From the NCBI GenBank assembly GCA_022574775.1, contig JACZRI010000001.1, positions 95,631-159,630 of the forward strand: DNA of 64,000 nucleotides, written 5' to 3'. Below, piece after piece: positions 5,310 to 62,206 of the stretch (the first letter of the stretch is position 1; each line of letters begins with the position of its first letter). The notes beneath the pieces are model-generated. The model was not told where the DNA came from, did not search any database, and saw nothing but the letters and a program-made list of their open reading frames with translations. Both the position numbers and the translations under genes were made by a program. The stretch comes from Patescibacteria group bacterium (GTDB lineage: Bacteria; Patescibacteriota; Minisyncoccia; Minisyncoccales; RBG-13-36-15).

Positions 5310-5410
5310 AACATTCTAACATCTAAACATATCAACATTAAAATACGCAGTTTTTGAATATTTACAGAATGTTAAAATGCTTAAATGTTTGTATGTTTAA
5401 ATGATTCATG
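5310..5410 (+). repeat. Family A periodic hairpin (AAACAT units / ATGTTTAA units) ending at the pilB start
   Basis: Left arm aacattctaacatctaaacatatcaacatta. Right arm aatgttaaaatgcttaaatgtttgtatgtttaaatgattcATG. Confidence 0.75.
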
Positions 5411-7156
5411 AAGGTTGAGCCACAACAATTTAGATCTTTTCTCTTGGATGCCGGATTGGTTACGGATAAGCAGTTTAACAAGGCCAGGAAAAGAGCAGAG
5501 AAAACCGGTGGGAAAATCGGAGATGTTCTTGTTTTTGAAGGTCTTATTACACAAGAACAATTAATTAAGATGGAAGCTTATATCCTTGGTATCCCTTTTG
5601 TGAATTTGGAAAAAGAAACTGTTTCTTCAGAAGTTTTAAAAATAATACCCGAGCCAATTGCCAGGTCAAACAATATTGTTGCATTTCGGAAAAAAGGAAG
5701 AAATCTGGAGGTTGCTATGCTGGATCCGGAAGACCTTAGAACCATTGAATTTATTAAAAAGACCGGCGCTTTGAAGATTTTACCGAGATTGACCACTCCA
5801 AAAGGTATGAAGAATGTTTTAAACCAATACCAAAAAACTTTAGAGGCTGAATTTGGAGAAATTATTAAAAAAGAGGTTAAGGGGATAAAACCAATTACAG
5901 AAGAAGAGGTTGTTGAAGGAAAAACAGAACTTAAAAAAGTGGCTGAAGAACTGCCTGTAATTCGAATTGTCGACACTCTTTTAAAGCACGCTATTTTACA
6001 GAAGGCTTCTGATATTCATATTGAACCCGGCGGGAAAGAAATTTCAGTTCGTTATAGAATAGATGGGATTTTACGGGAAGCAATGTTGCTGCCGAAATTG
6101 GTTCAATCAGGGATTGTTGCTAGAATAAAAGTCCTTTCCAAACTAAAGCTTGACGAACACCGGCTTCCGCAAGATGGCAGATTTAAGGTTGAAACGGAGG
6201 ATTACAAATATTCTATTCGGGTTTCTATCTTGCCTATTTTTGATGGAGAAAAGATTGTTATGAGATTGTTGCCAGAAACTACCAGGGCTTTCACATTGGA
6301 AGCTTTGGGGTTGCAAGGGGATGCTCTTGAAAGAACACATGATGCCTTAAGAAAACCTGTTGGAATGCTTTTGGTTACAGGTCCTACTGGTTCTGGAAAG
6401 ACAACTACCTTATATTCTATGATGGAAATCTTGAATAGCTCAAGAATAAATATTTCTACAATTGAAGATCCAGTTGAATATCGGATGCCTGGAATTAACC
6501 AGACTCAGGTTAATCCAAAAATTGGCTTAACTTTCGCTTCTGGCCTAAGGTCTTTGGTTAGGCAAGACCCGGATATTTTAATGGTCGGAGAAATTCGTGA
6601 TAAAGAAACGGCTTCTTTGGCTATTAATGCTGCTCTTACTGGCCATTTGGTTTTATCTACGCTACACACCAATACGGCGGCTGGAGCTATCCCAAGGTTA
6701 ATTGAGATGGGCGTTGAACCATTTTTAATTTCTTCAACCTTGAATTTAATTTTAGCGCAAAGATTAATCAGAAAACTTTGTCCAGAGAAGACACAATATA
6801 GTTTAAAGAAAGCAGAACTAAAAACTCTTGAGAAAAATTGCGATTTAGATGCGGTTTTAAAAATACTTAAGAAGGAAAGATTAGTTAAACCAAAAACCGG
6901 CTGGGGAAATATCAAATTTTTCAGGTCAAAATCTTCTAAAGAATGTTCAGATGGGTATAGCGGCAGAATCGGGATTTTTGAAATTATGCCTATTACTGAA
7001 ACAATCAAGGAGTTGATTGTTAAACGAGTAAGAGTTGATCAAATTGAAGATCAGGCAAAAAAAGAAGGAATGAGAACCATGGTAGAAGATGGTTTCTTGA
7101 AAGCGGTTCAAGGAGTAACTTCAATTGAAGAAGTATTGAGAGTTATCATTGAATAA
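5408..7156 (+). CDS. pilB: Type IV pilus assembly ATPase PilB (GspE family), locus 1
   Basis: GspE-N-like N-terminus, Walker A GPTGSGKTT, MVGEIRD, LSTLHTN. 582 aa. Confidence 0.9.
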   Translation: MKVEPQQFRSFLLDAGLVTDKQFNKARKRAEKTGGKIGDVLVFEGLITQEQLIKMEAYILGIPFVNLEKETVSSEVLKIIPEPIARSNNIVAFRKKGRNLEVAMLDPEDLRTIEFIKKTGALKILPRLTTPKGMKNVLNQYQKTLEAEFGEIIKKEVKGIKPITEEEVVEGKTELKKVAEELPVIRIVDTLLKHAILQKASDIHIEPGGKEISVRYRIDGILREAMLLPKLVQSGIVARIKVLSKLKLDEHRLPQDGRFKVETEDYKYSIRVSILPIFDGEKIVMRLLPETTRAFTLEALGLQGDALERTHDALRKPVGMLLVTGPTGSGKTTTLYSMMEILNSSRINISTIEDPVEYRMPGINQTQVNPKIGLTFASGLRSLVRQDPDILMVGEIRDKETASLAINAALTGHLVLSTLHTNTAAGAIPRLIEMGVEPFLISSTLNLILAQRLIRKLCPEKTQYSLKKAELKTLEKNCDLDAVLKILKKERLVKPKTGWGNIKFFRSKSSKECSDGYSGRIGIFEIMPITETIKELIVKRVRVDQIEDQAKKEGMRTMVEDGFLKAVQGVTSIEEVLRVIIE

Positions 7157-7157
7157 C

Positions 7158-7220
7158 GTGAAATATGAAGTGCGAAGAAACGAAGAATTCTTCAGATCTT
7201 CAGATCTTCAGACTTCAGGC
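7158..7220 (+). repeat. Family B hairpin repeat (GAAG-N3-4 units / CTTCAGA units)
   Basis: gtgaaatatgaagtgcgaagaaacgaagaattcttcagatcttcagatcttcagacttcaggc, with a central gaagaattcttc palindrome. Confidence 0.75.
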
Positions 7221-7228
7221 TTTGTATT

Positions 7229-8453: not shown

Positions 8454-9329
8454 ATGCGAAGCTTTACTTTAATAGAGATGCTGATTGTTATTGGGATAAT
8501 TGGTATTCTCGTAGCTTTTGCTTTTCCCGCCTATCGTTTTTTTCAAAAAGAATCAGATTTAACAAATTTATCTGTAGAGATTGTTAATACTATAAGGTTG
8601 GCTCAAAATAAAACCTTGGCTTCAGAGAGAGCAAGCCAATACGGTGTTTATTTTGATCAAATCACGATTCCCAATCGGTATATTCTATTTAAAGGAGGAA
8701 GTTATGGCAGCAGAGATGCTTCATTTGACGAAATTCACAAATTTTCAAGTTTCGTGGAAATTTCTGAAATGAATTTAGCAGGAGGCGTATCTGAAGTAGT
8801 TTTTAACAGAGTTTCCGGTGAAACCTTGCAGTCTGGCAATATCTTTTTGAGGTTAAAAATTGATCCCACTAAAATAAAAACTATCTATATTGAAAGCTCA
8901 GGACGGGTTGATTTAGTTTCATCTCCAACTCCATCTGATGAAGAGCGGATAAAGGATTCTCGCCATGTTCATTTTACGTATAACCAAGATGCGAGAAACG
9001 CCGCTACTTTGCATTTAATCTTTCTTAATTATCCTGCTGATAATTCTGATATTGATTTTCAGGCCAATTTGAATCCTGGGAAAACTAAATTTTACTGGGA
9101 GGGAAGTGTTTTGGTGGGGCCTGTTGGGAATAAAACCGAACAGAAACTCTTTATTCAAACTCATTCTTTAGATCTAACTGCTGCCCAATTTTCTGTTCAC
9201 CGAGATAGAAGGTACAATGATAATGCTTTGGAGATTACTCTTGATGACCAAAACCTTATTCACTATACGGCAGATGGCCAAACCACCAAGGGTAGTTCAG
9301 TTCATGTTACTGATCCTCAATGGCAATAA
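8454..9329 (+). CDS. Minor (pseudo)pilin, FimT/GspH-like, locus 1
   Basis: N-terminal prepilin methylation motif MRS-FTLIEMLIVIGIIGILVAFAFP. Starts 2 nt after the pilC stop. Confidence 0.75.
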   Translation: MRSFTLIEMLIVIGIIGILVAFAFPAYRFFQKESDLTNLSVEIVNTIRLAQNKTLASERASQYGVYFDQITIPNRYILFKGGSYGSRDASFDEIHKFSSFVEISEMNLAGGVSEVVFNRVSGETLQSGNIFLRLKIDPTKIKTIYIESSGRVDLVSSPTPSDEERIKDSRHVHFTYNQDARNAATLHLIFLNYPADNSDIDFQANLNPGKTKFYWEGSVLVGPVGNKTEQKLFIQTHSLDLTAAQFSVHRDRRYNDNALEITLDDQNLIHYTADGQTTKGSSVHVTDPQWQ

Positions 9330-9331
9330 AC

Positions 9332-9395
9332 AAAGTATGAAATACAAAGTACGAAGAAACGAAGAAAAAAAATTTTCAGAACTTCAGACTTCTTG
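9332..9395 (+). repeat. Family B hairpin repeat
   Basis: aaagtatgaaatacaaagtacgaagaaacgaagaaaaaaaattttcagaacttcagacttcttg. Contains the first ATG of the next ORF. Confidence 0.75.
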
Positions 9396-9900
9396 TTTTC
9401 GACTCGGCTCGCCAAGAGTGGCAGATTTCAGGATTCAGAAGGGGGTTTCGGTAATTGAAATTTTAGTAGTGATTTTTATTTTGGCTGTTGCTTTTGTTGG
9501 TATTTTAGGCTTAATCACTTTTTCTTTAAAAGTTTCCACTTTAACAAAAGAGACCACGCAAGCTGTGAATATAACCCAAGAAACATTTGAGGTTGTTCGT
9601 AATTTTCGAGACGGAAAGGATTGGAGTACAGACGGTCTCGGGAGTTTAGTCATGGAAGTTCCTTATCATCCAGAGAAGACAATTGATATTCCTCCTCAGT
9701 GGGCGCTCATTCAGGGAGAGGAGATAATTGATGGATTTTCAAGAAAGGTTGTTTTTAAGGAGGTTTTTCGGGATGGAAATGACGATATTGTTGAAACTGG
9801 TGGAGTATTAGATCCAGATACTAAAAAAGCCACAGTTACTGTTTCTTGGAAAGATCAAGAAGTTGAAGTAGCTACTTATTTTACTAACTGGAATCAATGA
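9337..9900 (+). CDS. Minor pilin, PilV/GspI-like, locus 1 (start uncertain)
   Basis: Prepilin-type segment QKG-VSVIEILVVIFILAVAFVGILG. ATG 9337 lies inside repeat B. In-frame GTG 9418 would give the leader MADFRIQKG. Confidence 0.65.
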   Translation: MKYKVRRNEEKKFSELQTSCFRLGSPRVADFRIQKGVSVIEILVVIFILAVAFVGILGLITFSLKVSTLTKETTQAVNITQETFEVVRNFRDGKDWSTDGLGSLVMEVPYHPEKTIDIPPQWALIQGEEIIDGFSRKVVFKEVFRDGNDDIVETGGVLDPDTKKATVTVSWKDQEVEVATYFTNWNQ

Positions 9901-10451: not shown

Positions 10452-10515
10452 TAATCTAAACATATTAATATGTTTAGATAGCGTTAAAATGCTCAGATGC
10501 TTAAATGTTAAAAAG
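10452..10515 (+). repeat. Family A periodic hairpin
   Basis: Perfect 26-bp palindrome atctaaacatattaatatgtttagat (10454-10479), then gttaaaATGctcagatgcttaaatgttaaaaag. Confidence 0.8.
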
Positions 10516-12333
10516 TCGGAAAAGGGTTTTGTCGCCTTGTTTTTATCAGTCCTGATTTTAGCTATAATTTTTGCTCTTGGAACGAGTATCACTATTTTGA
10601 CTTTAGGCCAGCAGAGAATTGCCAGCGATATTACCAGATCTTCTCAAGCCTATTTTGCCGCTGAAGCCGGCATTGAAGACAGCCTCTTGAGAATTCAAAA
10701 CAACAAACTTTATGTTCCTGATAATACTTTAAGCGTTAATGGGGCAAGTGTGGATATTAATATTTCCGGCAGTCCAACTCAGCAAACAGTTATCTCTCAA
10801 GGTGATTTTGATAATATTTTCAGGACTGTGACTACTGTGTTAAAACTTAACACTACTGCGCCTGCTTTTTATTATGGCGCTCAAATTGGCGAAGGAGGTC
10901 TGGAAATGGAGAACAATAGTCGGATTGAGGGTGTTGGCGGTGTGGCTGGAAATGTTTATTCTAATGGGAACATTGAAGGCGATCCAGGAGCTGTAATCAC
11001 TGGAGATGTTTTTGTGGCTTCAAGCACTGATCTTAATCAGCAGTGGGCCGTGTGTAGTAGCGATCAAGTTTTTGGTCAGAATTCCCCAGTACTGGATCTA
11101 GTCCAAAGTTTCAAAATCAATCAAACAGAACGTTTGGTTCAGGTCAGTATCTATTTGAAAAAAAATGGAAACCCAAAGAATCGAACCATCAGGATTTTAA
11201 CTGATGATAATGGTTCACCCAGTGAAACAGTTTTAGCTTCAGCTACCTTAAATGCCTCTAAAGTGACTGAAAATTACGGTTGGATCAATATCGCTATTCC
11301 TAATCCACCCCTTTTAAACGCAGATACTTTTTATTGGTTGATGGTAGATACGAAAGCAGATAGCAATAAATACTGGATTTGGTGTAAAGATCAAAACGAA
11401 GGATATATCAATGGAGTAGCAAAATATAGCCATGATTGGAATGAAGATGATCCAGACTGGACTCAGATAACTGGCGATCTTAATATCAAAATCTGGATTG
11501 GGGGCGCAATCACTTCTCTGGAAAAAATAAGAGTTTTTGGCGATGCTTATGCGAACACCATCTTGGCGAGTGAGATACAAGGAGATGCGTATTATCAATT
11601 CATCGATCAAGGCTCGCTCGATTGGTTAAATAATTATTCTGGAAGTCCAGGCATTGCTTATCCTGATTTTCCAGATCCTGCGGTCAGTGACATGCCTGTT
11701 TCTGATGCAAATATTCAGGAATGGAAAGATGAAGCTGGATGCGGTCAACAGCCAGCCATTCCCCCTTGCTTGATTGAGGGGGATTATAGCCCACCTTCTG
11801 GCGCTTCAACTTTGGGTCCGGCAACAATAACTGGCGATCTCGATATGACCAATCTTCAGGTTTTAGAGATTACAGGCACCGTGTACGTCCAGGGTAATAT
11901 TGATTTTGAAGGTGGCGCAAACCTTGAATCAGGTATGAGTTGCTCTCCTGACTATGGAGAACTCAGTTGTGTTGTACTTTCCGATGGATGGATTCATATT
12001 AAAAACAATAAACTTTTCCAGGGTTCTGGTCAGCCAGAAAGTTATTTTATGCTTTTAACTACGGCTAATTGCCAGGGTGGGGATCAGACTCCAAGTTGTA
12101 CGCACCATAATGCGGCAATGGATTTGCATAATAATGCAGTCGGGGCTATATTTTATGCAGCAGACGGTCTTATTTACCTTCATAACGGGGTAATTATTTC
12201 TGAAATAGTAGCCTATAAAGTTCAGTTAAAGGAAAATGCAGTGATTCAATATGAACAAGGACTGGTTAACGCCCAATTTTCATCAGGACCTGGAGCTGCC
12301 TGGGTAATTCAAAGTTGGCAGGAGACTGAATAA
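10489..12333 (+). CDS. PilX-N-terminal-domain protein with large beta-rich C-terminal region (putative pilus tip/adhesin subunit), locus 1
   Basis: N-terminus KGFVALFLSVLILAIIFALGTSITILTLGQQRIASD..AYFAAEAGIEDSLLRI resembles the PilX N-terminal domain. 614 aa, Gly/Asn-rich. Confidence 0.65.
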   Translation: MLRCLNVKKSEKGFVALFLSVLILAIIFALGTSITILTLGQQRIASDITRSSQAYFAAEAGIEDSLLRIQNNKLYVPDNTLSVNGASVDINISGSPTQQTVISQGDFDNIFRTVTTVLKLNTTAPAFYYGAQIGEGGLEMENNSRIEGVGGVAGNVYSNGNIEGDPGAVITGDVFVASSTDLNQQWAVCSSDQVFGQNSPVLDLVQSFKINQTERLVQVSIYLKKNGNPKNRTIRILTDDNGSPSETVLASATLNASKVTENYGWINIAIPNPPLLNADTFYWLMVDTKADSNKYWIWCKDQNEGYINGVAKYSHDWNEDDPDWTQITGDLNIKIWIGGAITSLEKIRVFGDAYANTILASEIQGDAYYQFIDQGSLDWLNNYSGSPGIAYPDFPDPAVSDMPVSDANIQEWKDEAGCGQQPAIPPCLIEGDYSPPSGASTLGPATITGDLDMTNLQVLEITGTVYVQGNIDFEGGANLESGMSCSPDYGELSCVVLSDGWIHIKNNKLFQGSGQPESYFMLLTTANCQGGDQTPSCTHHNAAMDLHNNAVGAIFYAADGLIYLHNGVIISEIVAYKVQLKENAVIQYEQGLVNAQFSSGPGAAWVIQSWQETE

Positions 12334-20175: not shown

Positions 20176-20257
20176 TCTAAGTATCTAAATATTTTAGCAT
20201 TTAAACATTTTTCTAATTTCGATCTGTTTAGATGTTTATATGTTTGAATGTTTAAAC
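20176..20257 (+). repeat. Family A periodic hairpin between infB and rbfA
   Basis: Left arm tctaagtatctaaatattttagcatttaaacattt. Right arm ctgtttagatgtttatatgtttgaatgtttaaac. Confidence 0.75.
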
Positions 20258-29285: not shown

Positions 29286-30470
29286 TCATTCTTGAACCAA
29301 TTTCAAGCTCATTCTATGTTCTTTCGGGTCTATTAGTAAAATTTTAAAATCGTACTTTTTGCCAATTTTTAAGTCATCCTCCATCTTATTTTGAGAACCA
29401 AACTCTGATATGTGACAGAGCCCTTGAATCTCAGAGGTTATTTGAACAAATGCTCCGAAGGGATTGAATTTAGTCACCTCGCCCTTGACGATATCTCCTT
29501 TTTTATATTTTTTCTTAATGTTTTCCCAAGGGTCTTTCTTAAGGGCTTTTAGAGAGAGGGAAACTTTTTCAGAGGCAAGGTCAATAATTTTCGCTTTAAC
29601 TTTTTGGCCTATTTTCACTATTTCAGAGGGATCTTCTATTATTTTCCAATCTAATTCAGAAATATGAATTAATCCTTCGAGAGCGGAGCTCTCGCCCGTT
29701 GGAGTTTTCTTGTTCTCCTTAGTTTTTCCGGAGGAGGAAGCAGAGGCAGGCTTATCCTTAGTGGAAGGATCCATCTTTGCCCTTTGGGCTTTGGAAGGTG
29801 AAAATTTTATAAATGCGCCAAAATCAACTAAACCTGTAATTTCTCCTTCAACTATATCTCCTATTTTGTAATTTTTTAAAATCTTTTTTATTTTATCCAC
29901 CTCTTTTATTTTTTCAGAAATGATAATTTGTTCATCCTGCGGCAAAATGTTGAGGACTTTCACCTCTAATTCCTGCCCAATAAATTTTTGAAGCTCTCTA
30001 AGGATTTTATTTGTATCTGCGCCTTCTACCTTTGGATAGTGGTCAGAGGATAGCTGGGATACCGGTAAAAAAGCGGGAATACCTGATATTTCGGACATCA
30101 GGCCTCCTTTATTTGCTTTTAAAATTTTAACCTTTATTGTTTCTCCTTTTTCTTTTTGCTGTTTTAGGGCTTCCAATGTTATTTCTTTTTCGGCTTGGGC
30201 TGTTGAAAGCTCAAGATAGCCATCTTCATTTTCTAAATCAACTATTTTAACAAAAATTTTATCTCCGATCTTCAGACTTCTAAGAATATCTTTAGAATAA
30301 AAAAATTCCTTCCCATATATTATTCCTGTTCCGCGAATGCCAATATCCAAATAAACAGCAGCCCTTTTCATTCCAACTACTGCTCCCTCAACAATTTCTC
30401 CGATTCTTGGAGGTTTAAACAAATTATTTTCTGTTTCTAAAACTTTTTTCATACCTTTCCAGTATATCAA
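29286..30470 (-). CDS. rpsA: S1 RNA-binding-domain protein (ribosomal protein S1-like, four S1 repeats) with a low-complexity insert
   Basis: Repeated G.IV.G.V......GA.V.. S1/OB motifs. About 40-aa insert KAQRAKMDPSTKDKPASASSSGKTKENKKTPTGESS between repeats 3 and 4. Confidence 0.8.
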   Translation of the reverse strand: MIYWKGMKKVLETENNLFKPPRIGEIVEGAVVGMKRAAVYLDIGIRGTGIIYGKEFFYSKDILRSLKIGDKIFVKIVDLENEDGYLELSTAQAEKEITLEALKQQKEKGETIKVKILKANKGGLMSEISGIPAFLPVSQLSSDHYPKVEGADTNKILRELQKFIGQELEVKVLNILPQDEQIIISEKIKEVDKIKKILKNYKIGDIVEGEITGLVDFGAFIKFSPSKAQRAKMDPSTKDKPASASSSGKTKENKKTPTGESSALEGLIHISELDWKIIEDPSEIVKIGQKVKAKIIDLASEKVSLSLKALKKDPWENIKKKYKKGDIVKGEVTKFNPFGAFVQITSEIQGLCHISEFGSQNKMEDDLKIGKKYDFKILLIDPKEHRMSLKLVQE

Positions 30471-31709: not shown

Positions 31710-31778
31710 TTAATTTCTAATTACTAATTAATTAAAACTTTAGAAATCAGGTTAATTCGAAATTAGATATTTTTATAT

Positions 31779-34274
31779 ATGGCTTCTAATGCTAAAAAAT
31801 TGAATACGGAGATTGGTTATATCAGACCTCGTGAAATAGTTGAGGAGATGCGGGTGTCTTATATTGATTATGCGATGTCAGTAATTATTTCACGGGCATT
31901 GCCCGATGTGAGGGATGGCTTAAAACCGGTCCATCGGCGAATTTTATATACGATGCATGAAGACGGATTAACTCATGGGGCTAAATTTAGAAAATCGGCA
32001 ACGGTAGTGGGTAGCACTTTAGGTCGTTATCACCCTCATGGCGATCAGGCGGTTTACGATTCCTTAGTTCGTATGGCCCAGGATTTTTCGTTAAGGTATC
32101 CTTTAATTCAAGGCCAAGGAAATTTCGGGTCGATTGACGGGGATCCTCCAGCCAGCATGCGTTATAGTGAAGCAAAACTCTCAAAAATTGGCGAGGAAAT
32201 GCTTAAAGATATCAACAAGAATACCGTCGATTTTATTGATAATTATGACGGAACGAGAAAGGAACCGATAGTTTTGCCTTCCCCTTTCCCTCAGCTTTTA
32301 TTAAATGGCACCCTTGGAATTGCGGTAGGCATGGCTACTAATATTCCTCCCCATAATTTATCTGAAGTTGTAGATGCCGCTGTTTATCTGATTGATCATC
32401 CAAAAGCCGTAACAGAAGAACTATTCAAATTCATTAAAGGACCTGATTTTCCAACCGGTGGTCAAATTTTCAACCAGAAAGAAATTATCACTGCCTATTC
32501 GCAGGGAAAGGGGCCTGTTGTAATAAGGGGTAAGGCAGAAATTGTAGAGAGCGAGAAGCAGGATCGTCCTCAAATTGTAATTACCGAGATTCCCTTTCAG
32601 GTTCAAAAGTCTTCTTTGGTTAAGCAGTTAGCTAATTTAGCTTCAGAAAAAAAGATTGACGGGATAAAGGATATTAGAGATGAGTCAGACAGAGAGGGAT
32701 TGAGAATCGTCATTGATTTACAAAGAGATGCTTTTCCTCAAAAGGTTTTAAACAGACTTTATAAGTTCAGCGATCTTCAGAAGACTTTCCATTTAAATCT
32801 TTTGGCGCTGGTTGACGGGATTCAGCCAAGAGTTTTGAATTTAGTTGAAATTTTAAATTATTATCTTTTACACCGCAAAGAAGTCGTTTTAAGGAGAACG
32901 AAGTTTGATTGGAGTAAGGCGAAAGAGAGAGCCCATGTTTTAGAGGGGCTGCACAAATGCCTGGCGAAAATTGATTCTGTTATTAAGATTATTAAAGCTT
33001 CAGCCAACAGAGAAGATGCCCAGAAGAAGTTAATGAAGAAGTTTAAACTCACTGAAATTCAGGCAAACGCAATTTTAGATACGAAACTTTCAGCTTTGGC
33101 GAAACTTGAGCGAAAGAAGATAGAAGAGGAATTAAACGAGCTCCGTAAGAGAATAAAGGAACTGACTGTAATCCTAAAAAGCCCTCAGAAGATTAAAGAT
33201 GTTGTCAAAAAAGAGTTGAAAGAGCTGAAGGAAAATTTTGGAGACGAAAGAAGGACAAAAGTTTATATTCAAAAGATTGATGAGCTGTCCCTGGAAGATC
33301 TAATTCCGCAAGAAGAAGTAGTTTTAACTTTAACAAAAGGAGGTTATATTAAAAGAATAAATCCAGGTATCTATAAAATCCAGAAAAGAGGAGGAAGAGG
33401 GCTCTTGGGAATGAAGACGGTAGGAGATGATATTGTTGAACATTTCCTTTCGGCAGACACTCATGATAAACTTTTGTTCTTTACTGATTCTGGGAAGGTT
33501 TTTAGAACCATGGTTTATGAAATTCCAGAAGGGACGAGGGTTGCTAGAGGAAGAGGGCTTTTGAATTTTTTAGAGATTTCTCCGAAAGATAAAGTTTTGT
33601 CTCTTATTTCTCTGGGCAAGGAAGATACAGGTTTGGGGATAGAATACTTAGCGATGGTCACGAAAAATGGGATAATAAAGAAAACCGCTTTGAAAGATTT
33701 TGAGAATGTGCGAAAATCAGGTCTATTGGCAATTACGTTAAAAAAAGGAGATTCTTTAAAACAGGTTGGGAAGAGCGCGAAAGCTGATGAATTGATTCTC
33801 ATAACGAAAAAAGGCAAAAGCATCCGCTTTCAAGGAAAAGAAGTTAGAGAAATGGGAAGGCAGGCGGCAGGAGTGAAAGGAATTAGCTTGAGAAAGGATG
33901 ACGAGGTAGTGGGGATGGCGGTTATACGAAGTACGAAGTACGAAGTAGGAAGAAATAAAGAAAAAAGATCTTCAGACTTCCTTTTGGTGTTGAGTGAGAA
34001 TGGATTTGGCAAGAGAACTGCTATTAAAGAATACAGGCTGCAGTCCAGAGGTGGTTCCGGAACCAAAACTGCAAATATCAATCCAAAAACCGGTGATTTA
34101 GTTTCTGCCCATCTTTTAACAGGAGAAGAAGAAGATTTAATTGTTATTTCTCAAAGAGGCCAGGTAATAAAAAGCAAAATTGCTTCCATCCCGATTTTAG
34201 GAAGATCTACCCAGGGAGTGAAAATTATGAAATTAGAGGAAGGAGACCGCGTGGCATCTGCGGCATGTATTTAA
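31779..34274 (+). CDS. gyrA: DNA gyrase subunit A
   Basis: [27 protein letters not shown], catalytic region RYHPHGD, GyrA-box/beta-pinwheel CTD. 831 aa. Confidence 0.95.
33925..33981 (+). repeat. Family B repeat copy embedded in-frame in gyrA
   Basis: tacgaagtacgaagtacgaagtaggaagaaataaagaaaaaagatcttcagacttcc, encoding [18 protein letters not shown]. Confidence 0.75.
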
Positions 34275-34896: not shown

Positions 34897-34933
34897 ATAC
34901 AACTTGACGGGAACTGTTCCCGTCAAGTTGTAT
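34897..34933. repeat. REP-type palindrome (family D)
   Basis: atacaacttgacgggaac-t-gttcccgtcaagttgtat, perfect 18-bp arms. Same core as the REPs around the RAYT gene at 56.7-57.6 kb. Confidence 0.85.
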
Positions 34934-39924: not shown

Positions 39925-39990
39925 ATGAAGTCTGAAGTCTGAAGTCTGAAGTTCTGAAGATTTCATTCTTCCTTTCTTCGTACTTCGTAC
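39925..39990 (-). repeat. Family B hairpin repeat (reverse orientation)
   Basis: Reverse complement reads aaagtatgaagtacgaagtacgaagaaaggaagaatgaaatcttcagaacttcagacttcagacttcagacttcat. Confidence 0.8.
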
Positions 39991-39998
39991 TTCATACT

Positions 39999-42098
39999 TT
40001 AACCAGCTTTAGCTGGCTGGGGCCAGGTTTCAATCATTAAAGACTTCTTCTTTTTTTTCACTGGTATTCTCTGATAAATTTCTTCCGTGATAAACGGCAC
40101 GAAAGGATGCAAGATTTTTAAAGAGTTTAGTAAAACATAGAGTAAAATCTGCTGCGTCTGAATTTTTACACTATAGTGAACGTTGTCAGATAGTTGTTTT
40201 TTTGACTTCTCGAGATAGATGTCGCAAAAATCGTGCCAGAAAAAGTCATAGATTTTATGAGCTGCTTGGCCAAAGCGAAAGCTTTCTATATCTTGATCTA
40301 TTGATTTTATTATCTTGCCTAAGGATTTTAAGATTTTTTTATCTGCCGGAGTTAGATTTTGAGCGTTAAGTTTTAGTTTTGCGCTTTGCGTCTTGTGTTT
40401 TGTATTTTCAGCTTGGAGCAATACAAATCTAGATGCGTTCCAGATTTTGTTGCAAAACTTTTTTCCCATTACCATATTATCTTCCATGAATCTAATATCT
40501 TGCCCTCTCATTACTTGGTAGAGTATTCCAAAACGAGTGGCATCTGCTCCATATTTTTCAATTAACTGTATTGGGTCCATGCCTGTCCCCAAAGACTTTG
40601 ACATCCTTTTTCCTTCTTTGGTTAAGACGATAGGGTGGATATATACTTTGCGAAAAGGTATTTTTTTCATAAACTCCATTCCGGAAAAAATCATTCTGGC
40701 TACCCATAAATTCATTATATCCCTGGCAGTACTTAAAACATCGGTGGGATAAAATTCTTTTAAATCTTTTGTTTTTTTTGGCCACCCCAGAGTAGCAAAG
40801 GGCCAGAGAGCAGCAGAAAACCAAGTGTCTAAAACGTCTGTTTCTCCTTTTAGTGGAATTCTATGGCCCCACCATAGCTGCCTGGAAATACACCAATCTC
40901 TTACGTTATCTAGCCAGGCGAAATATCCTTTTTCAAAGCTTTTTGGATAAAATTTCATTTCTCCTGTTTTAACTGGTTTTTTTGCCAATTTTGCCAATTC
41001 TTTCATTTTTAAAAACCACTGCTTGGAGAGAATTGGTTCAAGAATAGTATCGCACCTGTAACAACATGCAATGCTATGTGTGTATGGTTCAGTTTTCTCT
41101 AAGATTCCAATTTTTCTCATATCTTTCACTATTTCTTTTCTTGCATCCATAACTGTCATTCCTGCGTACTTTCCTGAAATGCTTGTCATTTTTCCGTCAT
41201 CTCCAATTACCTGTTTTTTTTCAAGACCATGTTTTTCACTCAATTCAAAATCATGCATATCATGGGCTGGCGTTACTTTCATGGCTCCCGTACCGAAACT
41301 CATGTCAACTGATTTGTCTCCGATAACTTTCATTTCAGCTTTGCCCAGCACAGTTTGAATTTTAATGGTTTTACTAATATATTTTTTGTATCTTATATCT
41401 TTTGGGTTTACTGCAACTGCAGTATCCCCCAATTTTGTTTCTGGGCGTACTGTCGCAATCGTGATGGGGCCGTATTTTATGTAATAAAGCTCTGCAGGCT
41501 CTTCTTTATATATAACTTCTAAGTCTGAAAGGCTTGTTGAACAGCGAGTGCACCAATTTATAGTTCGTTCCCCTTGGTAAATCCATCCTTTCTTGTAGTA
41601 ATGGGAGAAGACCTGATTTACTGCGATTGAGTAGTCTTTATCCATCGTAAACCTCGTCCTTGACCAGTCTAAAGAACACCCCAGTTTTTTAAACTGGCCT
41701 AAAATAGTATTCCTGTATTTTTTCTTCCACTGCCAAACTCTTTTAATAAACTTTTTCCGTCCAAGGTCAAATCTCGTTTTTCCCTCTTTTTTTAGTTCTT
41801 TTTCCACTGCATTCTGGGTGGCAATGCCAGCATGATCCAAACCTGGCAGCCATAGTGTTTTGAAGCCCTCCATTCTCTTTTTTCGAACCAGAACATCTTG
41901 GCAGGCAGCATTCAAGGCGTGACCCATATGGAGTTCTCCAGTAATATTTGGAGGTGGAATAACAATGCAGTAGCTTTTAGCTTTTAGGTTGTAGCTTTTA
42001 GGTAACTTATCGGGGTTAAAAAAACCGCTCTTTTCCCAGAGTTTATAAATTTTATCCTCTACTTCTTTCGGATTGTAGGTTTTAGATAAATTTTTCAT
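39999..42098 (-). CDS. valS: Valyl-tRNA synthetase (short, lacks the C-terminal coiled coil)
   Basis: PPPNITGELHMGHALN (HIGH region) and KMSKSLG. CP1 editing region present. 699 aa. Confidence 0.9.
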   Translation of the reverse strand: MKNLSKTYNPKEVEDKIYKLWEKSGFFNPDKLPKSYNLKAKSYCIVIPPPNITGELHMGHALNAACQDVLVRKKRMEGFKTLWLPGLDHAGIATQNAVEKELKKEGKTRFDLGRKKFIKRVWQWKKKYRNTILGQFKKLGCSLDWSRTRFTMDKDYSIAVNQVFSHYYKKGWIYQGERTINWCTRCSTSLSDLEVIYKEEPAELYYIKYGPITIATVRPETKLGDTAVAVNPKDIRYKKYISKTIKIQTVLGKAEMKVIGDKSVDMSFGTGAMKVTPAHDMHDFELSEKHGLEKKQVIGDDGKMTSISGKYAGMTVMDARKEIVKDMRKIGILEKTEPYTHSIACCYRCDTILEPILSKQWFLKMKELAKLAKKPVKTGEMKFYPKSFEKGYFAWLDNVRDWCISRQLWWGHRIPLKGETDVLDTWFSAALWPFATLGWPKKTKDLKEFYPTDVLSTARDIMNLWVARMIFSGMEFMKKIPFRKVYIHPIVLTKEGKRMSKSLGTGMDPIQLIEKYGADATRFGILYQVMRGQDIRFMEDNMVMGKKFCNKIWNASRFVLLQAENTKHKTQSAKLKLNAQNLTPADKKILKSLGKIIKSIDQDIESFRFGQAAHKIYDFFWHDFCDIYLEKSKKQLSDNVHYSVKIQTQQILLYVLLNSLKILHPFVPFITEEIYQRIPVKKKKKSLMIETWPQPAKAG

Positions 42099-50916: not shown

Positions 50917-51183
50917 ATGGCAATTTTACCAATAAAAAAGAAAGACAGAAAAATCTTCAACTGGATTTTATTAATTATAGCTTTAATTCTAGTGGCTTGG
51001 TTTGGCAGAGATTTTTTCGTTAAACCTTCTTTTCTTTCTCCTTCCAGTCTGCCACAGGAAAAAAAAACGGAAATTAATTTTGAAGTATTGAAAAATCCTC
51101 TATTGCAAGACCTTCAGCCTTTTGAGGAGATCCCTTCTTTTGAAGGAGAGACTGGCAGGGAAAATCCTTTCCTACCGTATTGA
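50917..51183 (+). CDS. Small N-terminally anchored protein following pilO (unknown)
   Basis: One TM helix, ends ..GRENPFLPY. Positional counterpart of 14736..15074. Confidence 0.45.
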   Translation: MAILPIKKKDRKIFNWILLIIALILVAWFGRDFFVKPSFLSPSSLPQEKKTEINFEVLKNPLLQDLQPFEEIPSFEGETGRENPFLPY

Positions 51184-51256
51184 CATTTAAATATTTAAAC
51201 ATTTTAACAGAATTGAACCAAATGTTTAGAAGTTTAAATGTTCAAATGTTTATATG
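51184..51256 (+). repeat. Family A periodic hairpin ending at the pilB2 start codon
   Basis: catttaaatatttaaacattttaac ... aaatgtttagaagtttaaatgttcaaatgtttatATG. Confidence 0.75.
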
Positions 51257-52981: not shown

Positions 52982-52989
52982 AAAATTAT

Positions 52990-53065
52990 TCAAACATTTT
53001 AACATTTAAACATTTTAACAATGCGTTAAGATATTTATATGCTTATATGCTTAGATGTTTAGATG
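52990..53065 (+). repeat. Family A periodic hairpin ending at the response-regulator start codon
   Basis: tcaaacattttaacatttaaacattttaac ... tttatatgcttatatgcttagatgtttagATG, clear 8-nt period. Confidence 0.8.
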
Positions 53066-56587: not shown

Positions 56588-56705
56588 TCCCATTTTTAAC
56601 TTTTGGAGTATTTTTAACCCCATTTTGGATATCGTCTTAACTCCTCCAGGACTTAACTTCTTTAGAACTTAATTGCTAAAAAATATCCTTGTCAAATAAC
56701 AGAAT

Positions 56706-56738
56706 CAACTTGACGGGAACTGTTCTCGCTAGTTCCCG
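56706..56738. repeat. REP palindrome, degenerate (family D)
   Basis: caacttgacgggaactgttctcgctagttcccg. Confidence 0.6.
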
Positions 56739-56787
56739 ATAAACTTACCGAAAACAGTTTACGCTATACCTTCAAATCTGTTATAAT

Positions 56788-56818
56788 CAACTCAACGGGA
56801 ACTGTTCTCGTTAAGTTG
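56788..56818. repeat. REP palindrome, 2 mismatches (family D)
   Basis: caactcaacgggaac-t-gttctcgttaagttg, ending 4 nt before the RAYT ATG. Confidence 0.7.
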
Positions 56819-56822
56819 AACA

Positions 56823-57533
56823 ATGCCGATCAAAAGACCACAATTAGTGACCGGTGAAATCTATCATGTAGTAATGCGTGGAGTTGATAAAAGGATAATT
56901 TTTCCTCAAAAAGAGGATTATTTTCGTTTTATCCACGACCTTTTCGAATTTAATGATGAAGATGATGTAATCAGTGTATACCGTTTCCATACTAACAACT
57001 TGACGGGAACTGTTCCCGTCAAGTTGAGAAAAGAGAGAAAGAAGAGGAAACTTTTGGTAGAAATTTTGGCTTTTTGTTTAATGTCCAATCATTTTCACCT
57101 ATTATTAAGACAGATTAAAGGACAGGGAATAAGCAAATTTATGAGAAAACTTGGGGGTTATGCCACTTACATTAATAAAAAGTATGAAAGAGAAGGCCAT
57201 CTCTACCAAGGAAGATTTCGGGCAGTTCACATTAAAGATGAAACCCAGCTAAAAAATGTATTTGTATATATTCACGCCAACCCTATTGAGTTTATAGAGC
57301 CGGGATGGAAGGAGGAAGGAATAAAAAATCCCAAAGGAGCAATTAAGTTTTTAGAGAGTTATCGGTGGTCAAGTTATTTAGATTACATCGGAAAGAAAAA
57401 TTATCAATCAATAACAAATAGAGAATTATTTAATAATATTTTAGGAAACAAAGAAGGTTGCCGGGAATCTGTTGAAAATTGGATTTTATATAAAGCAGAT
57501 ATTAAAAATTTAGGTCAGGTTGTTTTAGAATAA
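56823..57533 (+). CDS. IS200/IS605-like Y1 (HUH) transposase of the RAYT type
   Basis: GEIYHVVMRGVDKRIIF, HUH motif MSNHFHLLL, GHLYQGRF, catalytic-Tyr context VFVYIHANPIE. 236 aa. Confidence 0.8.
   Translation: MPIKRPQLVTGEIYHVVMRGVDKRIIFPQKEDYFRFIHDLFEFNDEDDVISVYRFHTNNLTGTVPVKLRKERKKRKLLVEILAFCLMSNHFHLLLRQIKGQGISKFMRKLGGYATYINKKYEREGHLYQGRFRAVHIKDETQLKNVFVYIHANPIEFIEPGWKEEGIKNPKGAIKFLESYRWSSYLDYIGKKNYQSITNRELFNNILGNKEGCRESVENWILYKADIKNLGQVVLE
56996..57026. repeat. Perfect REP palindrome inside the RAYT coding sequence (in frame)
   Basis: caacttgacgggaac-t-gttcccgtcaagttg, encoding NLTGTVPVKL. Confidence 0.85.
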
Positions 57534-57560
57534 CTTGACGGGAACAGTTCCCGTCAAGTT
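57532..57560. repeat. Perfect REP palindrome (family D)
   Basis: aacttgacgggaac-a-gttcccgtcaagtt, overlapping the RAYT stop codon. Confidence 0.85.
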
Positions 57561-57576
57561 GGTTAACGGTCTTAGT

Positions 57577-57609
57577 CCAACCTGTCGAGAACAGTTCTCG
57601 ACAGGTTGG
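57577..57609. repeat. REP variant palindrome (family D)
   Basis: ccaacctgtcgagaac-a-gttctcgacaggttgg. Confidence 0.8.
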
Positions 57610-58534: not shown

Positions 58535-59341
58535 ATGGCAATTTTTTATTTTATTGTATTTATATTAGGCCTATCGGTGGGCTCTTTTTTGAATTCAGTA
58601 ATTTATCGGCTAAAAAGCGGAGACAGCTTTCTTTTTAAAAGATCTTATTGTCCCCGCTGTAAACACGCTTTAACTTGGCAAGATTTAATTCCCCTTTTGA
58701 ATTTTATCATTCTGGGAGGTAAGTGCCGTTATTGCCATCAGCGGATATCGTTCCAGTATCCAGCAGTGGAACTTGCAACAGGGATTTTATTTGTTTCCGT
58801 TTTTCTTCATACTTTTAATTCTTTCCAAATTGACAATACTGCCATGACAATGTTGTTAGGTTTTTACTATTCAGCGGCAATTTGTTTTTTAATAATCATT
58901 TTTGTTTACGATTTAAAACATTTCATAATTCCGGACAAAATAATTTATCCGGCCATATTAGCATCTGGCATTTGGTATCTGGCATCTGGCATTTTTTTTA
59001 ATCTCTATACAAAATATGAAATACTAAATGCTGTATTCTCGGGTCTTGGAGCTGCTGCTTTTTTTCTTGCGATTATCTTGATTTCCCGCGGTAAATGGAT
59101 GGGATTGGGCGATCCAAAATTAGCTTTTTTTATGGGATTTTTTCTTGGCTTCCCCAATATTTTAGTCGCCCTCTTTTTTGCTTTCTTCATCGGAGCTATA
59201 ATAGGAATAGGGTTGATAGTTTTTAAGAAGAAAGCGCTTAAAAGTGAAGTTCCGTTCGGGCCCTTTTTAGTGACAGGAACGCTTATTGCGTTTTTCTGGG
59301 GAGAAACTATTATTAGCCGGTATCTAAATTTATTTTTGTAA
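58535..59341 (+). CDS. pilD: Prepilin peptidase PilD (A24 family)
   Basis: N-terminal CPRC...CRYC zinc motif, polytopic. Aspartyl motif contexts VYDLKHFIIPD and MGLGDPKL. Confidence 0.9.
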   Translation: MAIFYFIVFILGLSVGSFLNSVIYRLKSGDSFLFKRSYCPRCKHALTWQDLIPLLNFIILGGKCRYCHQRISFQYPAVELATGILFVSVFLHTFNSFQIDNTAMTMLLGFYYSAAICFLIIIFVYDLKHFIIPDKIIYPAILASGIWYLASGIFFNLYTKYEILNAVFSGLGAAAFFLAIILISRGKWMGLGDPKLAFFMGFFLGFPNILVALFFAFFIGAIIGIGLIVFKKKALKSEVPFGPFLVTGTLIAFFWGETIISRYLNLFL

Positions 59342-59349
59342 AAATCATC

Positions 59350-59420
59350 AAAATACCTAAACATCTAAATGATTAAGTTTCAATTTTGTTAAAATGTTAA
59401 AATACTTAAATGTTAAAATG
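59350..59420 (+). repeat. Family A periodic hairpin
   Basis: aaaatacctaaacatctaaatgatt ... ttttgttaaaATGttaaaatacttaaatgttaaaATG. Confidence 0.75.
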
Positions 59421-59984
59421 AAAAAGAAAGGTTTTACCATCATTGAACTGCTCGTCGTCATAAGTATTATCGCTATTCTGTCAGGAATAGTTTTGATTGA
59501 TTACCGGTCCGGCCAACAAGCATTTGCTCTTCAGAGGACAGCTTCCAAATTAGCCCAAGACATCAGAAGGGCTCAGGAAATGGCAATGTCAGCGGGTGAG
59601 TGTACTTTCTGCGACCTCTCATGTAGTCCAAATGGGGTTCCGTCTGGGTATATGGTAGTGTTTACTAGTAATCCAAATTACAGTATATTTGCTGATGACG
59701 GTGATAAAGTTTTCGATTCTGGTGACTGTAACATTCTTGGGAATCCTATACCATTTGAGAAGGGTATTGTGATTGATGCTCTTTCTTCAGATTTAACTTT
59801 TGAGCCTTTTCTGTCAATCACTTTTACTCCTCCTGACCCTATTGTTACTATTTGTCATGGATCAGCCTCCTGCAGTGTTTCTTCCGGGTGGATTCGGCTT
59901 TGTATAGAGGGAAGTGATTGCTTAGATCCGTCAAATACAAAAACCATCAACATTAATACAGTTGGCCGAATTGAGATAGACTGA
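59394..59984 (+). CDS. Minor pilin, FimT/GspH-like, locus 2 (alternative start ATG 59418)
   Basis: ..KKKG then FTIIELLVVISIIAILSGIVLIDY. The first 8 codons (MLKYLNVK) come from the family A repeat. Confidence 0.75.
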   Translation: MLKYLNVKMKKKGFTIIELLVVISIIAILSGIVLIDYRSGQQAFALQRTASKLAQDIRRAQEMAMSAGECTFCDLSCSPNGVPSGYMVVFTSNPNYSIFADDGDKVFDSGDCNILGNPIPFEKGIVIDALSSDLTFEPFLSITFTPPDPIVTICHGSASCSVSSGWIRLCIEGSDCLDPSNTKTININTVGRIEID

Positions 59985-59989
59985 CCAGG

Positions 59990-60043
59990 CATATAAACAT
60001 ATAGACATATTTTTAAATGCTAAAATACTTAAATGTTAAGGTG
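59990..60043 (+). repeat. Family A periodic hairpin
   Basis: catataaacatatagacatat ... tttttaaATGctaaaatacttaaatgttaagGTG. Confidence 0.7.
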
Positions 60044-60541
60044 AAGAAGGGTTTTACTCTTCTTGAGGTCACCATCGCTATTTTTATACTGCTGGTTGGA
60101 GTAACGGCAGGTTCAGTCTTAATTGCCAGAACAGTTAGCCAGATGAGTGTTTTTTCTTCCAAACTGATAGCTGCCTATTTAACCCAGGAGGGAATAGAGA
60201 TTATAAGAAATATCAGGGATACGAATTGGCTGCAAGGAGGGGCTTGGGATGAAGGACTTACTGGATGTTTTTTTACAGGGTGTGAAGCAGATTATACTGC
60301 TACGACCGTAGAAAATCCTCCAGGTGCCACAGCTTATTTTGAGACCTTTGCCAATAATTTTTTAAAAATTGATATCAGTGGTTTCTATAATTATACTTCT
60401 GGTACAGATACCAAATACAAAAGAAAAATTACGATTGTATCCGGGGCAGATATTTTAACAGTTACCGTGGAGACTACCTGGTCAGAGAAAGGAAAAGATT
60501 ATTCTCATATTGCCCAGGAAATTTTGTATAACTGGAAATAA
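60017..60541 (+). CDS. Minor pilin, PilV/GspI-like, locus 2 (alternative start GTG 60041)
   Basis: ..VKKG then FTLLEVTIAIFILLVGVTAGSVLI. The first 8 codons (MLKYLNVK) come from the family A repeat. Confidence 0.7.
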   Translation: MLKYLNVKVKKGFTLLEVTIAIFILLVGVTAGSVLIARTVSQMSVFSSKLIAAYLTQEGIEIIRNIRDTNWLQGGAWDEGLTGCFFTGCEADYTATTVENPPGATAYFETFANNFLKIDISGFYNYTSGTDTKYKRKITIVSGADILTVTVETTWSEKGKDYSHIAQEILYNWK

Positions 60542-61111: not shown

Positions 61112-61213
61112 AAAGTACGAAGTATGAAGTACGAAGAAATAAAAAAGATAAAGAAATTCGAAGTACGAAGTACGAAGAAAAGAAATTTTTCTAATCTTTA
61201 TACTTCATACTTC
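61112..61213 (+). repeat. Family B hairpin repeat (duplicated left arm)
   Basis: aaagtacgaagtATGaagtacgaagaaat...ttcgaagtacgaagtacgaagaaaag...ctttatacttcatacttcc. Confidence 0.8.
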
Positions 61214-62206
61214 CCGCTAAAGGCGAGGCTCGCCAAAGGCGGCAGACTTCAAAGGGGTGTCGCTATTTATTTAGCTGTAATTGTGATGTTCGTTTTGCTT
61301 GGCATTGGTTTGGGATTGAGCACTCTTTTGGTCGGCAAGATAAAATCAATAGAGAGAGTAGGCAATTCGGTTACTGCTTTTTATGCTGCGGACACCGGCA
61401 TTGAAAGGGAACTGTTTGAAGTCAGGATTTTTCCAGGAACGGCAAAGACACTAGGCGCAAGCTATTCTGGTTTTCTTGATATAGACGGTGGAGGGGCTCC
61501 GACAGCAGGAGTTTGTCCTGATGCTTTAGAGCCATCATATCTTGGTGATGCGTGCTATAAAGTTACTATTACTTCTGATTCTCCATACACAGTAGAATCT
61601 ATTGGTATCTATAAAGGAGTGCGAAGAGCGGTTGAGGTTAATTGGTCTCTTGCTGGGCCTCCTGTTGATCCCTGCAAAACGCCAGCCGAATATACGGTAT
61701 TTGTAAGCAGTGTTGGGTATACCGGTGGTGAACTTGGGCCAAGCGGTGGTGTTACTGATGGCTTATGCCAGAGCTTGGCTGAAAACGCGACTCCTCCTCT
61801 TCCGGGTCAATATACAGCTTGGGTTTCTTTTAGTGGCACTGACGAGCCCCGCGATCCACCGAGAGGACTTAGTGTTTGCGCAGCAGAGGGGGCAAATAGC
61901 GCAAGCTGGCATTTGCCAGACGGTACTCTGATCGCAAATGACTGGGTTGACCTAACTGACGGCACTATAGCCGCAGCAATCAGTCAAGACGAAATCAGCG
62001 GTACTGTTTTAATAGCTACATGGACGGGTACAGATGAGTTCGGGAGCTTCTTAACCCCAAACTGTGTGTCGTGGACTAGTAGTGGATCCAGTGATTCTGG
62101 CTGGTTTGGGTTCACGAACCAGACTGACTTAAAATGGACGAAATGGACCTCGGGAGCCTCGTGCGACAATCCTTTGCGTATCTACTGTTTCCAGCACAGC
62201 GAATAG
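61124..62206 (+). CDS. PilX-like minor pilin fused to a Cys-containing C-terminal domain of possible endostatin/DUF1554 (C-type-lectin-fold) type
   Basis: RG-VAIYLAVIVMFVLLGIGLGLSTLL..AFYAADTGIERELF (PilX-N-like). The C-terminus runs TVFVSS..TGGELG..DGLCQ..YTAWVS...ATWTGTD..G....CVSWTS......CDNPLRIYCFQ. The only in-frame start lies in repeat B. Confidence 0.65.
   Translation: MKYEEIKKIKKFEVRSTKKRNFSNLYTSYFPLKARLAKGGRLQRGVAIYLAVIVMFVLLGIGLGLSTLLVGKIKSIERVGNSVTAFYAADTGIERELFEVRIFPGTAKTLGASYSGFLDIDGGGAPTAGVCPDALEPSYLGDACYKVTITSDSPYTVESIGIYKGVRRAVEVNWSLAGPPVDPCKTPAEYTVFVSSVGYTGGELGPSGGVTDGLCQSLAENATPPLPGQYTAWVSFSGTDEPRDPPRGLSVCAAEGANSASWHLPDGTLIANDWVDLTDGTIAAAISQDEISGTVLIATWTGTDEFGSFLTPNCVSWTSSGSSDSGWFGFTNQTDLKWTKWTSGASCDNPLRIYCFQHSE

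Follow-up and report, generated by a model that had tools for sequence, protein, structure and literature searches.

The gyrA gene of a Patescibacteria group bacterium was found to carry, in frame, a copy of a small dispersed repeat designated family B. The DNA analyzed, hereafter called the window, is a 64,000-nt stretch of contig JACZRI010000001.1 (assembly GCA_022574775.1, positions 95,631 to 159,630). A 57-nt segment of gyrA within it is a true member of this family of hairpin repeats, far above chance expectation. This element is found at one and the same codon in three separated lineages, and different arrays occupy the site in others. With moderate confidence, we propose that the family B copy recently overwrote an older GyrA loop by template switching or ectopic conversion, that the home of the family is intergenic and similar to that of repetitive extragenic palindromic (REP) elements, and that the encoded peptide is a passenger.

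A family B repeat is read in frame within gyrA

The gyrA coding sequence is an uninterrupted open reading frame (ORF) whose top homologs are named DNA gyrase subunit A and come from Patescibacteria. The gene and the parts of the repeat are as follows.

31779..34274, + strand: gyrA coding sequence (831 aa)
33925..33981, + strand: in-frame family B copy in gyrA, codons 716 (partly) to 734
33925-33952: left arm of this copy, (TACGAAG)x4
33953-33966: A-rich centre
33967-33981: shortened right arm, GATCTTCAGACTTC

The bases at 33925-33981 are tacgaagtacgaagtacgaagtaggaagaaataaagaaaaaagatcttcagacttc, and the ENGFGKRT strand follows directly. The initial annotation had described a family B copy that is in frame, free of stop codons and located in a loop just before this strand of the GyrA C-terminal domain (CTD). 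Its bases and peptide are indeed present at these positions, and the placement of the loop was confirmed. The reading frame in use is the only one of this copy that lacks stops, and the peptide it yields is an 18-residue loop with a net charge of +3. Relative to the CTD of solved GyrA structures, the window protein has 13 additional residues exactly at the element, and a 13-aa gap appears at this site in the alignment with GyrA of Mycobacterium tuberculosis. Because an identical 57-nt segment is found in L210, an independent assembly from the European Nucleotide Archive (ENA) that differs from the window by 3 single-nucleotide polymorphisms over 9,536 nt, the segment is not an assembly artefact.

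Family B is a dispersed hairpin repeat of about 60–70 nt, composed of GAAG+N3 heptamers, with a left arm of (GAAGTAY)3-4, an A-rich centre and a right arm of (CTTCAGA)2-4 or (ATACTTC)n. The order of these parts is common to all copies: a GAAGTAY-type array is followed by GAAGAAA and the A-rich centre and then by a CTTCAGA array, which in the copy at 61153 is a fully complementary ATACTTC array. Copies range from 57 to 70 nt, the number of units per arm differs between them, and GTAC or GTAG is present in every heptamer unit and not as one head. Membership of the gyrA segment was assessed with an nhmmer profile for which the four intergenic copies alone were used, the gyrA copy being excluded. 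This profile matched gyrA at 33927-33982 (E=6.1e-10, 35.3 bits, model positions 2-65 of about 71). The window contains 7 matches to the left-arm 20-mer with no more than 3 mismatches, compared with 0 in 100 shuffles, and 5 to the right-arm 15-mer, compared with 0.13 expected. Aligned directly, the gyrA segment and the copy at 39941-39996 agree at 75% over 56 nt. Tandem Repeats Finder (TRF) returned period-7 arrays at 33925-33952 (4.0 copies), 39926-39959, 39976-39999, 61113-61136 and 61159-61177, with a unit common to these loci. One of the six family B copies of the window lies inside a coding sequence. A partial match to the right arm at 30264-30281 (E=0.05, antisense within an S1-domain gene) was set aside as chance. 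The presence of a 4-nt palindrome in each heptamer (GTAC, AGCT, AATT or TTAA here and in the arrays described below) was likewise rejected as meaningful, since about 40% of random heptamers have one.

The family B copy appears to have replaced an older loop

The 57 nt had originally been viewed as an insertion into an otherwise short loop. This was not borne out: the turn is expanded in all 120 of the closest GyrA homologs (72-100% identity), and the loop of the nearest relative is just 9 nt shorter than that of the window. The turn measures about 5 residues in Bacillus, Nitrospirae and other GyrAs from outside the candidate phyla radiation. Among the 120 homologs it is hypervariable, with 88 distinct sequences of 8-30 aa that are mostly lysine-rich. 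The loops are net positive in most relatives, and no peptide is conserved across the 88.

The nearest relative is L001 (protein P0003). With the loop left aside, its protein is 96.5% identical in aa to that of the window, and the two gyrA genes are 93.8% identical in DNA. The L001 loop, of 15 aa, is RAQKATNKERKAKEY. DNA identity between the two genes falls to 0.57-0.67 across 33909-34028, compared with 0.85-1.0 everywhere else. The loops of L001 and the outgroup L004 (P0005) have AAG-SCA, AATAAARAR, CGAAAAGCA and TAT in common, none of which is shared by the window loop. Because the L001 loop resembles that of the outgroup, the window loop is the derived one, and the comparison points to family B sequence having overwritten an older loop after the split from L001. 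In the adjoining segment 33982-34050, the differences from L001 are mostly synonymous (divergence is about 6% elsewhere) and could represent a recombination tract or indel-associated mutation.

Family B and other heptamer arrays recur at one site

Family B elements were found at the same codon in L002 (P0012, 76% aa identity) and L003 (P0040, 74%). Both proteins have closer relatives without the element, P0043 (89.5%) for P0012 and P0018 (84.3%) for P0040, so the family B loop is recurrent or transferred and not ancestral. The initial annotation had reasoned that the same peptide, if conserved in distant GyrA homologs lacking the repeat family, would be a sign of ancestry. The family B loop is absent from distant GyrA proteins generally, as it had anticipated. 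The same peptide and DNA do occur at this codon in P0012 and P0040, and ancestry does not follow from this, as the closer relatives of both lack the element.

At the site, L002 reads ATA followed directly by CGAAGTACGAAGGACGAAGTACGAAGAAA...ACTTCAGACTT, and the left junction, ATA adjoining CGAAGTACGAAG, is identical in the window and L002. When L002 was compared with L208 (82% DNA identity), 90 nt of family B were found in the one and 36 nt of (AAARCTA)n in the other, with flanks conserved up to both junctions. The difference is again a replacement and not an insertion. The other arrays found in the gyrA loop are listed here.

L085: (AAAGCTC)n, read as KAQSSKL
L086: (AAGTTAA)n, interrupted by a GC-rich palindrome
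L087: (AAAATTC)x4.7, read as KIQNSKF
L208: (AAARCTA)n
L011: (AAAAACAG)n

In protein sequence, an offset of 7 aa (21 nt, three heptamers) gives 4 or more identities in 17 of the 88 distinct loops, compared with 8 loops that reach this number at any of seven other offsets tested. L087 has a second (AAAATTC)n array 6 kb away at 6037-6066 (- strand), where it is read in frame as the opening codons (MEFKIQNLK) of a gene for an RluA-like pseudouridine synthase. A scan of a genome collection with GyrA returned no further family B loops, in a set biased by one pattern (KDDEVVGM).

Several other features were noted at this site. The gyrA loop of L086 (12143-12222) has the GC-rich palindrome CCCGAGATCGGCTCGGG nested in frame inside its (AAGTTAA)n array. 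Similar central loop inserts are present at the protein level in P0079, P0091 and P0094, and the GyrA homologs P0021 and P0024 (1219-1232 aa) contain an intein domain (PF14890).

The element encodes a surface turn of the GyrA CTD

An AlphaFold2 model of the CTD was obtained with a mean predicted local distance difference test score (pLDDT) of 84.7 and a predicted template modeling score (pTM) of 0.85. It matches the beta-pinwheels of GyrA CTDs, with a template modeling (TM) score of 0.86 to the E. coli gyrase 9ggq_A. CTD residues 217-233, which the element encodes, are the turn that connects strand 210-216 (VVGMAVI) with strand 234-239 (FLLVLS); in the numbering of the whole protein, these strands are 710-716 and 734-739. 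CTD residues 221-229 have a pLDDT below 50 and lie between the two confident strands. Equivalent turns in the other pinwheel repeats are 3-10 residues long. Mapping the insert onto a structural model, as had been suggested at the outset, thus places it in a low-pLDDT turn between two strands, and the model predicts a disordered surface turn that is compatible with the GyrA fold.

Intergenic copies lie directly after stop codons

The remaining members of the family in the window are intergenic.

7157..7223, + strand: family B copy filling the spacer between a PilB-like gene (stop 7154-7156) and a PilC-like gene (GTG 7229); E=1.2e-18; RNA fold -18.2 kcal/mol
9331..9399, + strand: family B copy 2-3 nt past a pilin-like stop (9327-9329), upstream of the next pilin-like gene; E=8.9e-19
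39934..40000, - strand: family B copy between a ValRS-like gene (stop 40001-39999, overlapping the first unit) and a PrsW-like gene (GTG 39922); E=4.6e-20
61112..61150, + strand: half copy with left arm only, (AAGTACG)x3.4 and A-rich centre, 2 nt past the stop at 61107-61109; E=1.7e-4
61153..61214, + strand: family B copy with fully complementary arms, the right one being (ATACTTC)n; E=3.7e-14; RNA fold -20.0 kcal/mol, z=-5.2

These copies occupy four short spacers of co-directional genes, all in sense orientation. They begin 0-3 nt past the upstream stop (TAA, then AGTAYGAAG) and end 8-20 nt before the next start. Of all the copies, the one at 39934..40000 folds into the best RNA hairpin (-21.6 kcal/mol, z=-4.7). 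The RNA hairpin of the gyrA copy, with two right-arm units only, is weak (-11.5 kcal/mol, z=-1.1). Each copy has 1-2 stop-free forward frames, and none of the three reverse frames is free of stops in 3 of the 5 full-length copies. All translated copies seen are in forward orientation, which fits this distribution of open frames. L084, L085 and L004 have an empty orthologous ValRS-PrsW spacer, and a different array element is found there in L086; gains or losses of copies therefore take place over the time that separates these lineages.

The intergenic copies are not canonical intrinsic terminators. By eye, no T runs were seen in the tails of the family B copies outside the terminator scan considered below. 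An Rfam scan of the window at gathering scores returned only tRNAs, and family B had no Rfam match. An exact-protein look-up of the PrsW-like protein of the window, made in search of strain variants of the 39934-40000 copy, returned no record. Two further observations concern these spacers. The ValRS-PrsW spacer of L086 (16277-16485) is arranged as (AAATTAG)2, palindromes and (AAATTAG)2. The sequences downstream of two copies in the window (9400-9431 and 61216-61258) are homologous, GGCTCGCCAA.AG.GGCAGA.TTCA, and represent the 5' ends of paralogous pilin-like genes.

Origin of the gyrA copy

In the account that we favor, family B sequence would have overwritten an older lysine-rich loop and left it 9 nt longer. 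The site is a beta-hairpin turn that is expanded and unconstrained throughout the clade and is repeatedly rewritten by arrays of 7-8-nt units. A copy would survive there owing to a length that is a multiple of three, a single stop-free frame and a short right arm, and because this arm is short, the hairpin in gyrA mRNA is weak. The most likely mode of writing would be template switching to a copy elsewhere in the genome, or ectopic gene conversion by such a copy, possibly seeded by GAAG or A-rich remnants that an earlier element had left at the site. Such remnant-seeded copying would explain both the recurrence of the ATA-CGAAGTACGAAG junction in separate lineages and that of loop units elsewhere in the same genome, in at least two genomes. 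The peptide would be a disordered, net-positive surface loop tolerated by gyrase, presumably a passenger that brings at most a mild gain of positive charge to the DNA-wrapping domain. The intergenic copies, for their part, would act as operon-internal RNA stem-loops in the manner of REP elements, protecting mRNA ends or decoupling neighboring genes.

Several results weigh against this account. Neither a donor copy nor a conversion tract was identified. In L085, L086 and L011, the 10 kb to each side of the loop yielded no second copy of its unit, so the match between the loop and the repeat family of its own genome rests on two genomes, those of the window and L087. The divergent patch also takes in about 70 nt of conserved coding sequence past the element (19 differences in 120 nt), and outgroup polarization of the 120 nt downstream is mixed, 11 changes being derived in L001 and 6 in the window. 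Recombination with a foreign gyrA allele would account for this downstream patch just as well as intragenomic conversion would. Segmental duplication may link the copies at 9331 and 61153, both of which stand in front of paralogous pilin-like genes. As for a function in RNA, it is the position of the intergenic copies that suggests one; two of the four full-length intergenic copies show no folding advantage over shuffled sequences, and a terminator scan of the gyrA and 39934-40000 copies flagged neither.

Classical transposition, in which a non-autonomous element resembling a Rickettsia palindromic element (RPE) or a miniature inverted-repeat transposable element (MITE) is moved by a trans-acting enzyme and enters the same loop repeatedly through target preference, would account for the dispersal of the copies, their variable presence at the orthologous ValRS-PrsW spacer, the in-frame copies in RecG, UvrA, PrmC and GrpE elsewhere, and the left junction that the window has in common with L002. 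We nevertheless consider it unlikely. No window copy has a target-site duplication or terminal inverted repeats apart from the arrays, the number of units per arm varies between copies, L001 offers a different, 9-nt shorter loop where an empty site would be expected, and the 90 nt of L002 stand in place of the 36 nt of L208. No transposase was seen, and no search aimed at transposases was made. The diverse homogeneous heptamer arrays at the same site across lineages and the enriched 7-aa periodicity of the loops are what would be expected if a hypermutable heptanucleotide array had evolved in situ by slippage, its likeness to the intergenic copies being due to a common GAAG+N3 mutational bias. 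GAAG+N3 arrays do occur in contigs with a GC content of 0.31-0.69 among the matches listed, other heptamer arrays lie within coding sequences of the window (the ValRS-like gene and ORF 58535-59341), and heptanucleotides have been reported as the most abundant class of long simple repeats in most prokaryotic genomes (PMC4679880). The gyrA copy, however, has the whole three-part order of left array, GAAGAAATAAA..AAAAGAT centre and CTTCAGAC right arm, at 64 of about 71 profile positions, and as this architecture matches that of the intergenic copies, one-unit slippage cannot yield it. The same composite sequence would also have to be reached in three lineages, and slippage by single units would shift the frame of an essential gene. 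Slippage in situ is rated as quite improbable.

The extension of the divergence dip relative to L001 beyond the element and into conserved coding sequence could also mark a lateral event, in which recombination with a diverged, element-bearing allele replaced about 130 nt of gyrA (33920-34050) and the three family B loops have one origin. The copies of the window and L002 do share more than heptamers: their left ends agree at 33/35 nt, and both centres contain TAAAGAAAAAA. Yet the downstream flank is no closer to L002 (93/120) or L003 (80/120) than expected, with 101/120 to L001, its changes are more often derived in L001 than in the window, and no donor is known; we judge such a patch to have as low a probability as slippage. 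Finally, the net-positive loops found at this site in most relatives might be taken to indicate an ancestral, functionally conserved GyrA loop that resembles the intergenic repeat by chance. This is extremely improbable. It is ruled out by the match to the repeat profile (E=6e-10), by the different loop of the 96.5%-identical P0003 and by the position of the loop as the most divergent part of the gene, and the 88 distinct loops hold no conserved peptide. Overwriting of an older loop by family B sequence remains the explanation that we prefer.

Relationship to known repeats

The element had been likened to the RPEs as an independent analogue. The functional likeness to in-frame palindromic repeats stands, but family B is not an RPE-type palindrome and forms instead a hairpin of 7-nt-unit arrays. 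RPEs are about 100-150 bp long, dispersed, capable of forming hairpins, and located between genes as well as in frame in housekeeping genes (PMC10969869). Family B is similarly dispersed and hairpin-capable, has intergenic copies and, in gyrA, an in-frame one, and contributes a surface loop and a new peptide segment. It differs in its size of 57-70 nt, its 7-nt-unit arrays of variable number and its occurrence in Patescibacteria, whereas the RPEs of Rickettsia encode a conserved peptide; in addition, family B replaces an earlier loop at a recurrent gyrA hot spot, whereas RPEs insert at scattered sites. Family B falls outside the RPE size range, and it is by size and description that the two are set apart. 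Unlike MITEs, it lacks terminal inverted repeats and target-site duplications, its arms being internal arrays with no flanking direct repeats.

REP elements are extragenic by definition, have a conserved GTAG-type head and an associated gene for a REP-associated tyrosine transposase (RAYT), and belong to the Proteobacteria. Family B resembles them and the bacterial interspersed mosaic elements that they form (BIMEs; REPINs) in being a short imperfect palindrome that occurs repeatedly in the 3' spacers of co-directional operon genes, the gyrA copy being the exception. In contrast to REP and BIME sequences, it has no GTAG-type head, it has translated copies, and its arms are heptamer arrays. No RAYT gene was identified, and no search aimed at one was made.

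In make-up, family B is closest to the dispersed heptanucleotide repeats. Among these, the short tandemly repeated repetitive (STRR) sequences of cyanobacteria are dispersed heptanucleotide tandem repeats. The likeness lies in a single 7-nt unit that is repeated 2-6 times at many loci in an orientation limited by stop codons. The arrays of family B are distinguished by being paired into hairpins, by following stop codons rather than preceding starts and by occurring in frame in essential genes. Small dispersed repeats (SDR) of Nostoc are reportedly nested in tandem heptamer repeats, in work by Elhai et al. from 2008 in Genome Res. That arrangement looks similar to the palindrome nested in the (AAGTTAA)n gyrA loop of L086, the phylum and the sequences being different. 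The TAACTGA repeats of Beggiatoaceae and cyanobacteria are mostly intergenic, lie near gene ends, have occasional copies in ORFs and are of unexplained origin (PMC4679880). A literature search found no report of such heptamer-hairpin elements in Patescibacteria.

To our knowledge, in-frame repeat-derived peptides in essential genes are textbook material only for Rickettsia. A case in Patescibacteria, involving a much smaller element with a 7-nt unit that is not a multiple of three, shows the conversion of selfish or slippage-prone DNA into protein to be a more general phenomenon. The GyrA loop provides a natural series for the spread of repeats, as one site can be followed in many lineages with before/after pairs at 94% and 82% DNA identity. 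Phylogenies based on gyrA should mask the loop, which is also a potential strain marker. More broadly, lineage-specific "insertions" in the proteins of these bacteria may often be repeat-derived and not functional innovations.

Arrays in other genes and genomes

More than 120 loci matched GAAGTAYGAAGTAYGAAG when metagenomes were scanned, with an inverted array downstream in about one quarter of the matches listed. The GAAG+N3 heptamer arrays among these matches (L088-L207) lie in contigs of 31% to 69% GC, and the arms are perfectly complementary in many of the high-GC contigs. This suggests that GAAG+N3 hairpins are not confined to Patescibacteria and may form a cross-phylum class of array hairpins. 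In low-GC contigs among the matches listed, the GAAGTAY array was found in frame and in forward orientation inside long ORFs. The in-frame arrays in genes other than gyrA are listed below, including three in the window.

RecG, L100 (same metagenome as L002): in-frame array; 14-residue insertion relative to solved structures
UvrA, L179: in-frame array; insertion of about 30 residues relative to solved structures
PrmC/HemK, L165 and L091: in-frame array, same site in both contigs
GrpE, L183: in-frame array
41971-42001, ValRS-like gene 39999..42098 (- strand): (AAAGCTA)n, giving KSYNLKAKSY just before PPPN; 3 aa more than in L004, L085 and L086
40376-40402, ValRS-like gene (- strand): (GCAAAAC)n, in frame, variable region
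58961-58992, ORF 58535..59341 (+ strand): (GCATCTG)x4.6, in frame as LASGIWYLASGIF, hydrophobic segment

When an artificial translation of the element was searched against proteins, it recovered 17 short (45-76 aa) unannotated ORFs only and no long host proteins; a search with the 58-aa loop and its flanks, in which 2 candidates were compared, gave no match. A bolder proposal, which we put forward as tentative and somewhat doubtful, is that tiny self-propagating GAAG+N3 heptamer hairpins constitute an undescribed class in Patescibacteria and possibly many phyla. Active copying, whether by gene conversion, by template switching or through an enzyme of their own, would place them in gene-end spacers and in unconstrained loops of essential proteins. 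The loops would be those of RecG, UvrA, PrmC, GrpE and ValRS and one particular loop in the DNA-wrapping domain of GyrA, which would be rewritten time and again. If true, such a class would be a steady source of lineage-specific coding sequence in minimal genomes.

The window contains additional repeats of related appearance. Octamer-array families, TTAAAATG and ACATTTAA with their inverses, are present at 5364-5409, 10484-10521, 20181-20256, 51183-51251, 52988-53065, 59389-59426 and 60012-60049. Some are paired as hairpins, and several are situated a short distance upstream of genes for type IV pili. These octamer arrays may have a regulatory role or represent another array-hairpin family. 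A perfect 32-nt palindrome, ACAACTTGACGGGAACTGTTCCCGTCAAGTTG, occurs in six copies (34899-34930; 56705-57608). The copy directly after the methyltransferase gene downstream of gyrA scores as terminator-like, and the other five cluster near pilin genes. An imperfect TAATTAC array (31711-31730; 2.9 units by TRF) is located right after the stop codon of a small ORF upstream of gyrA.

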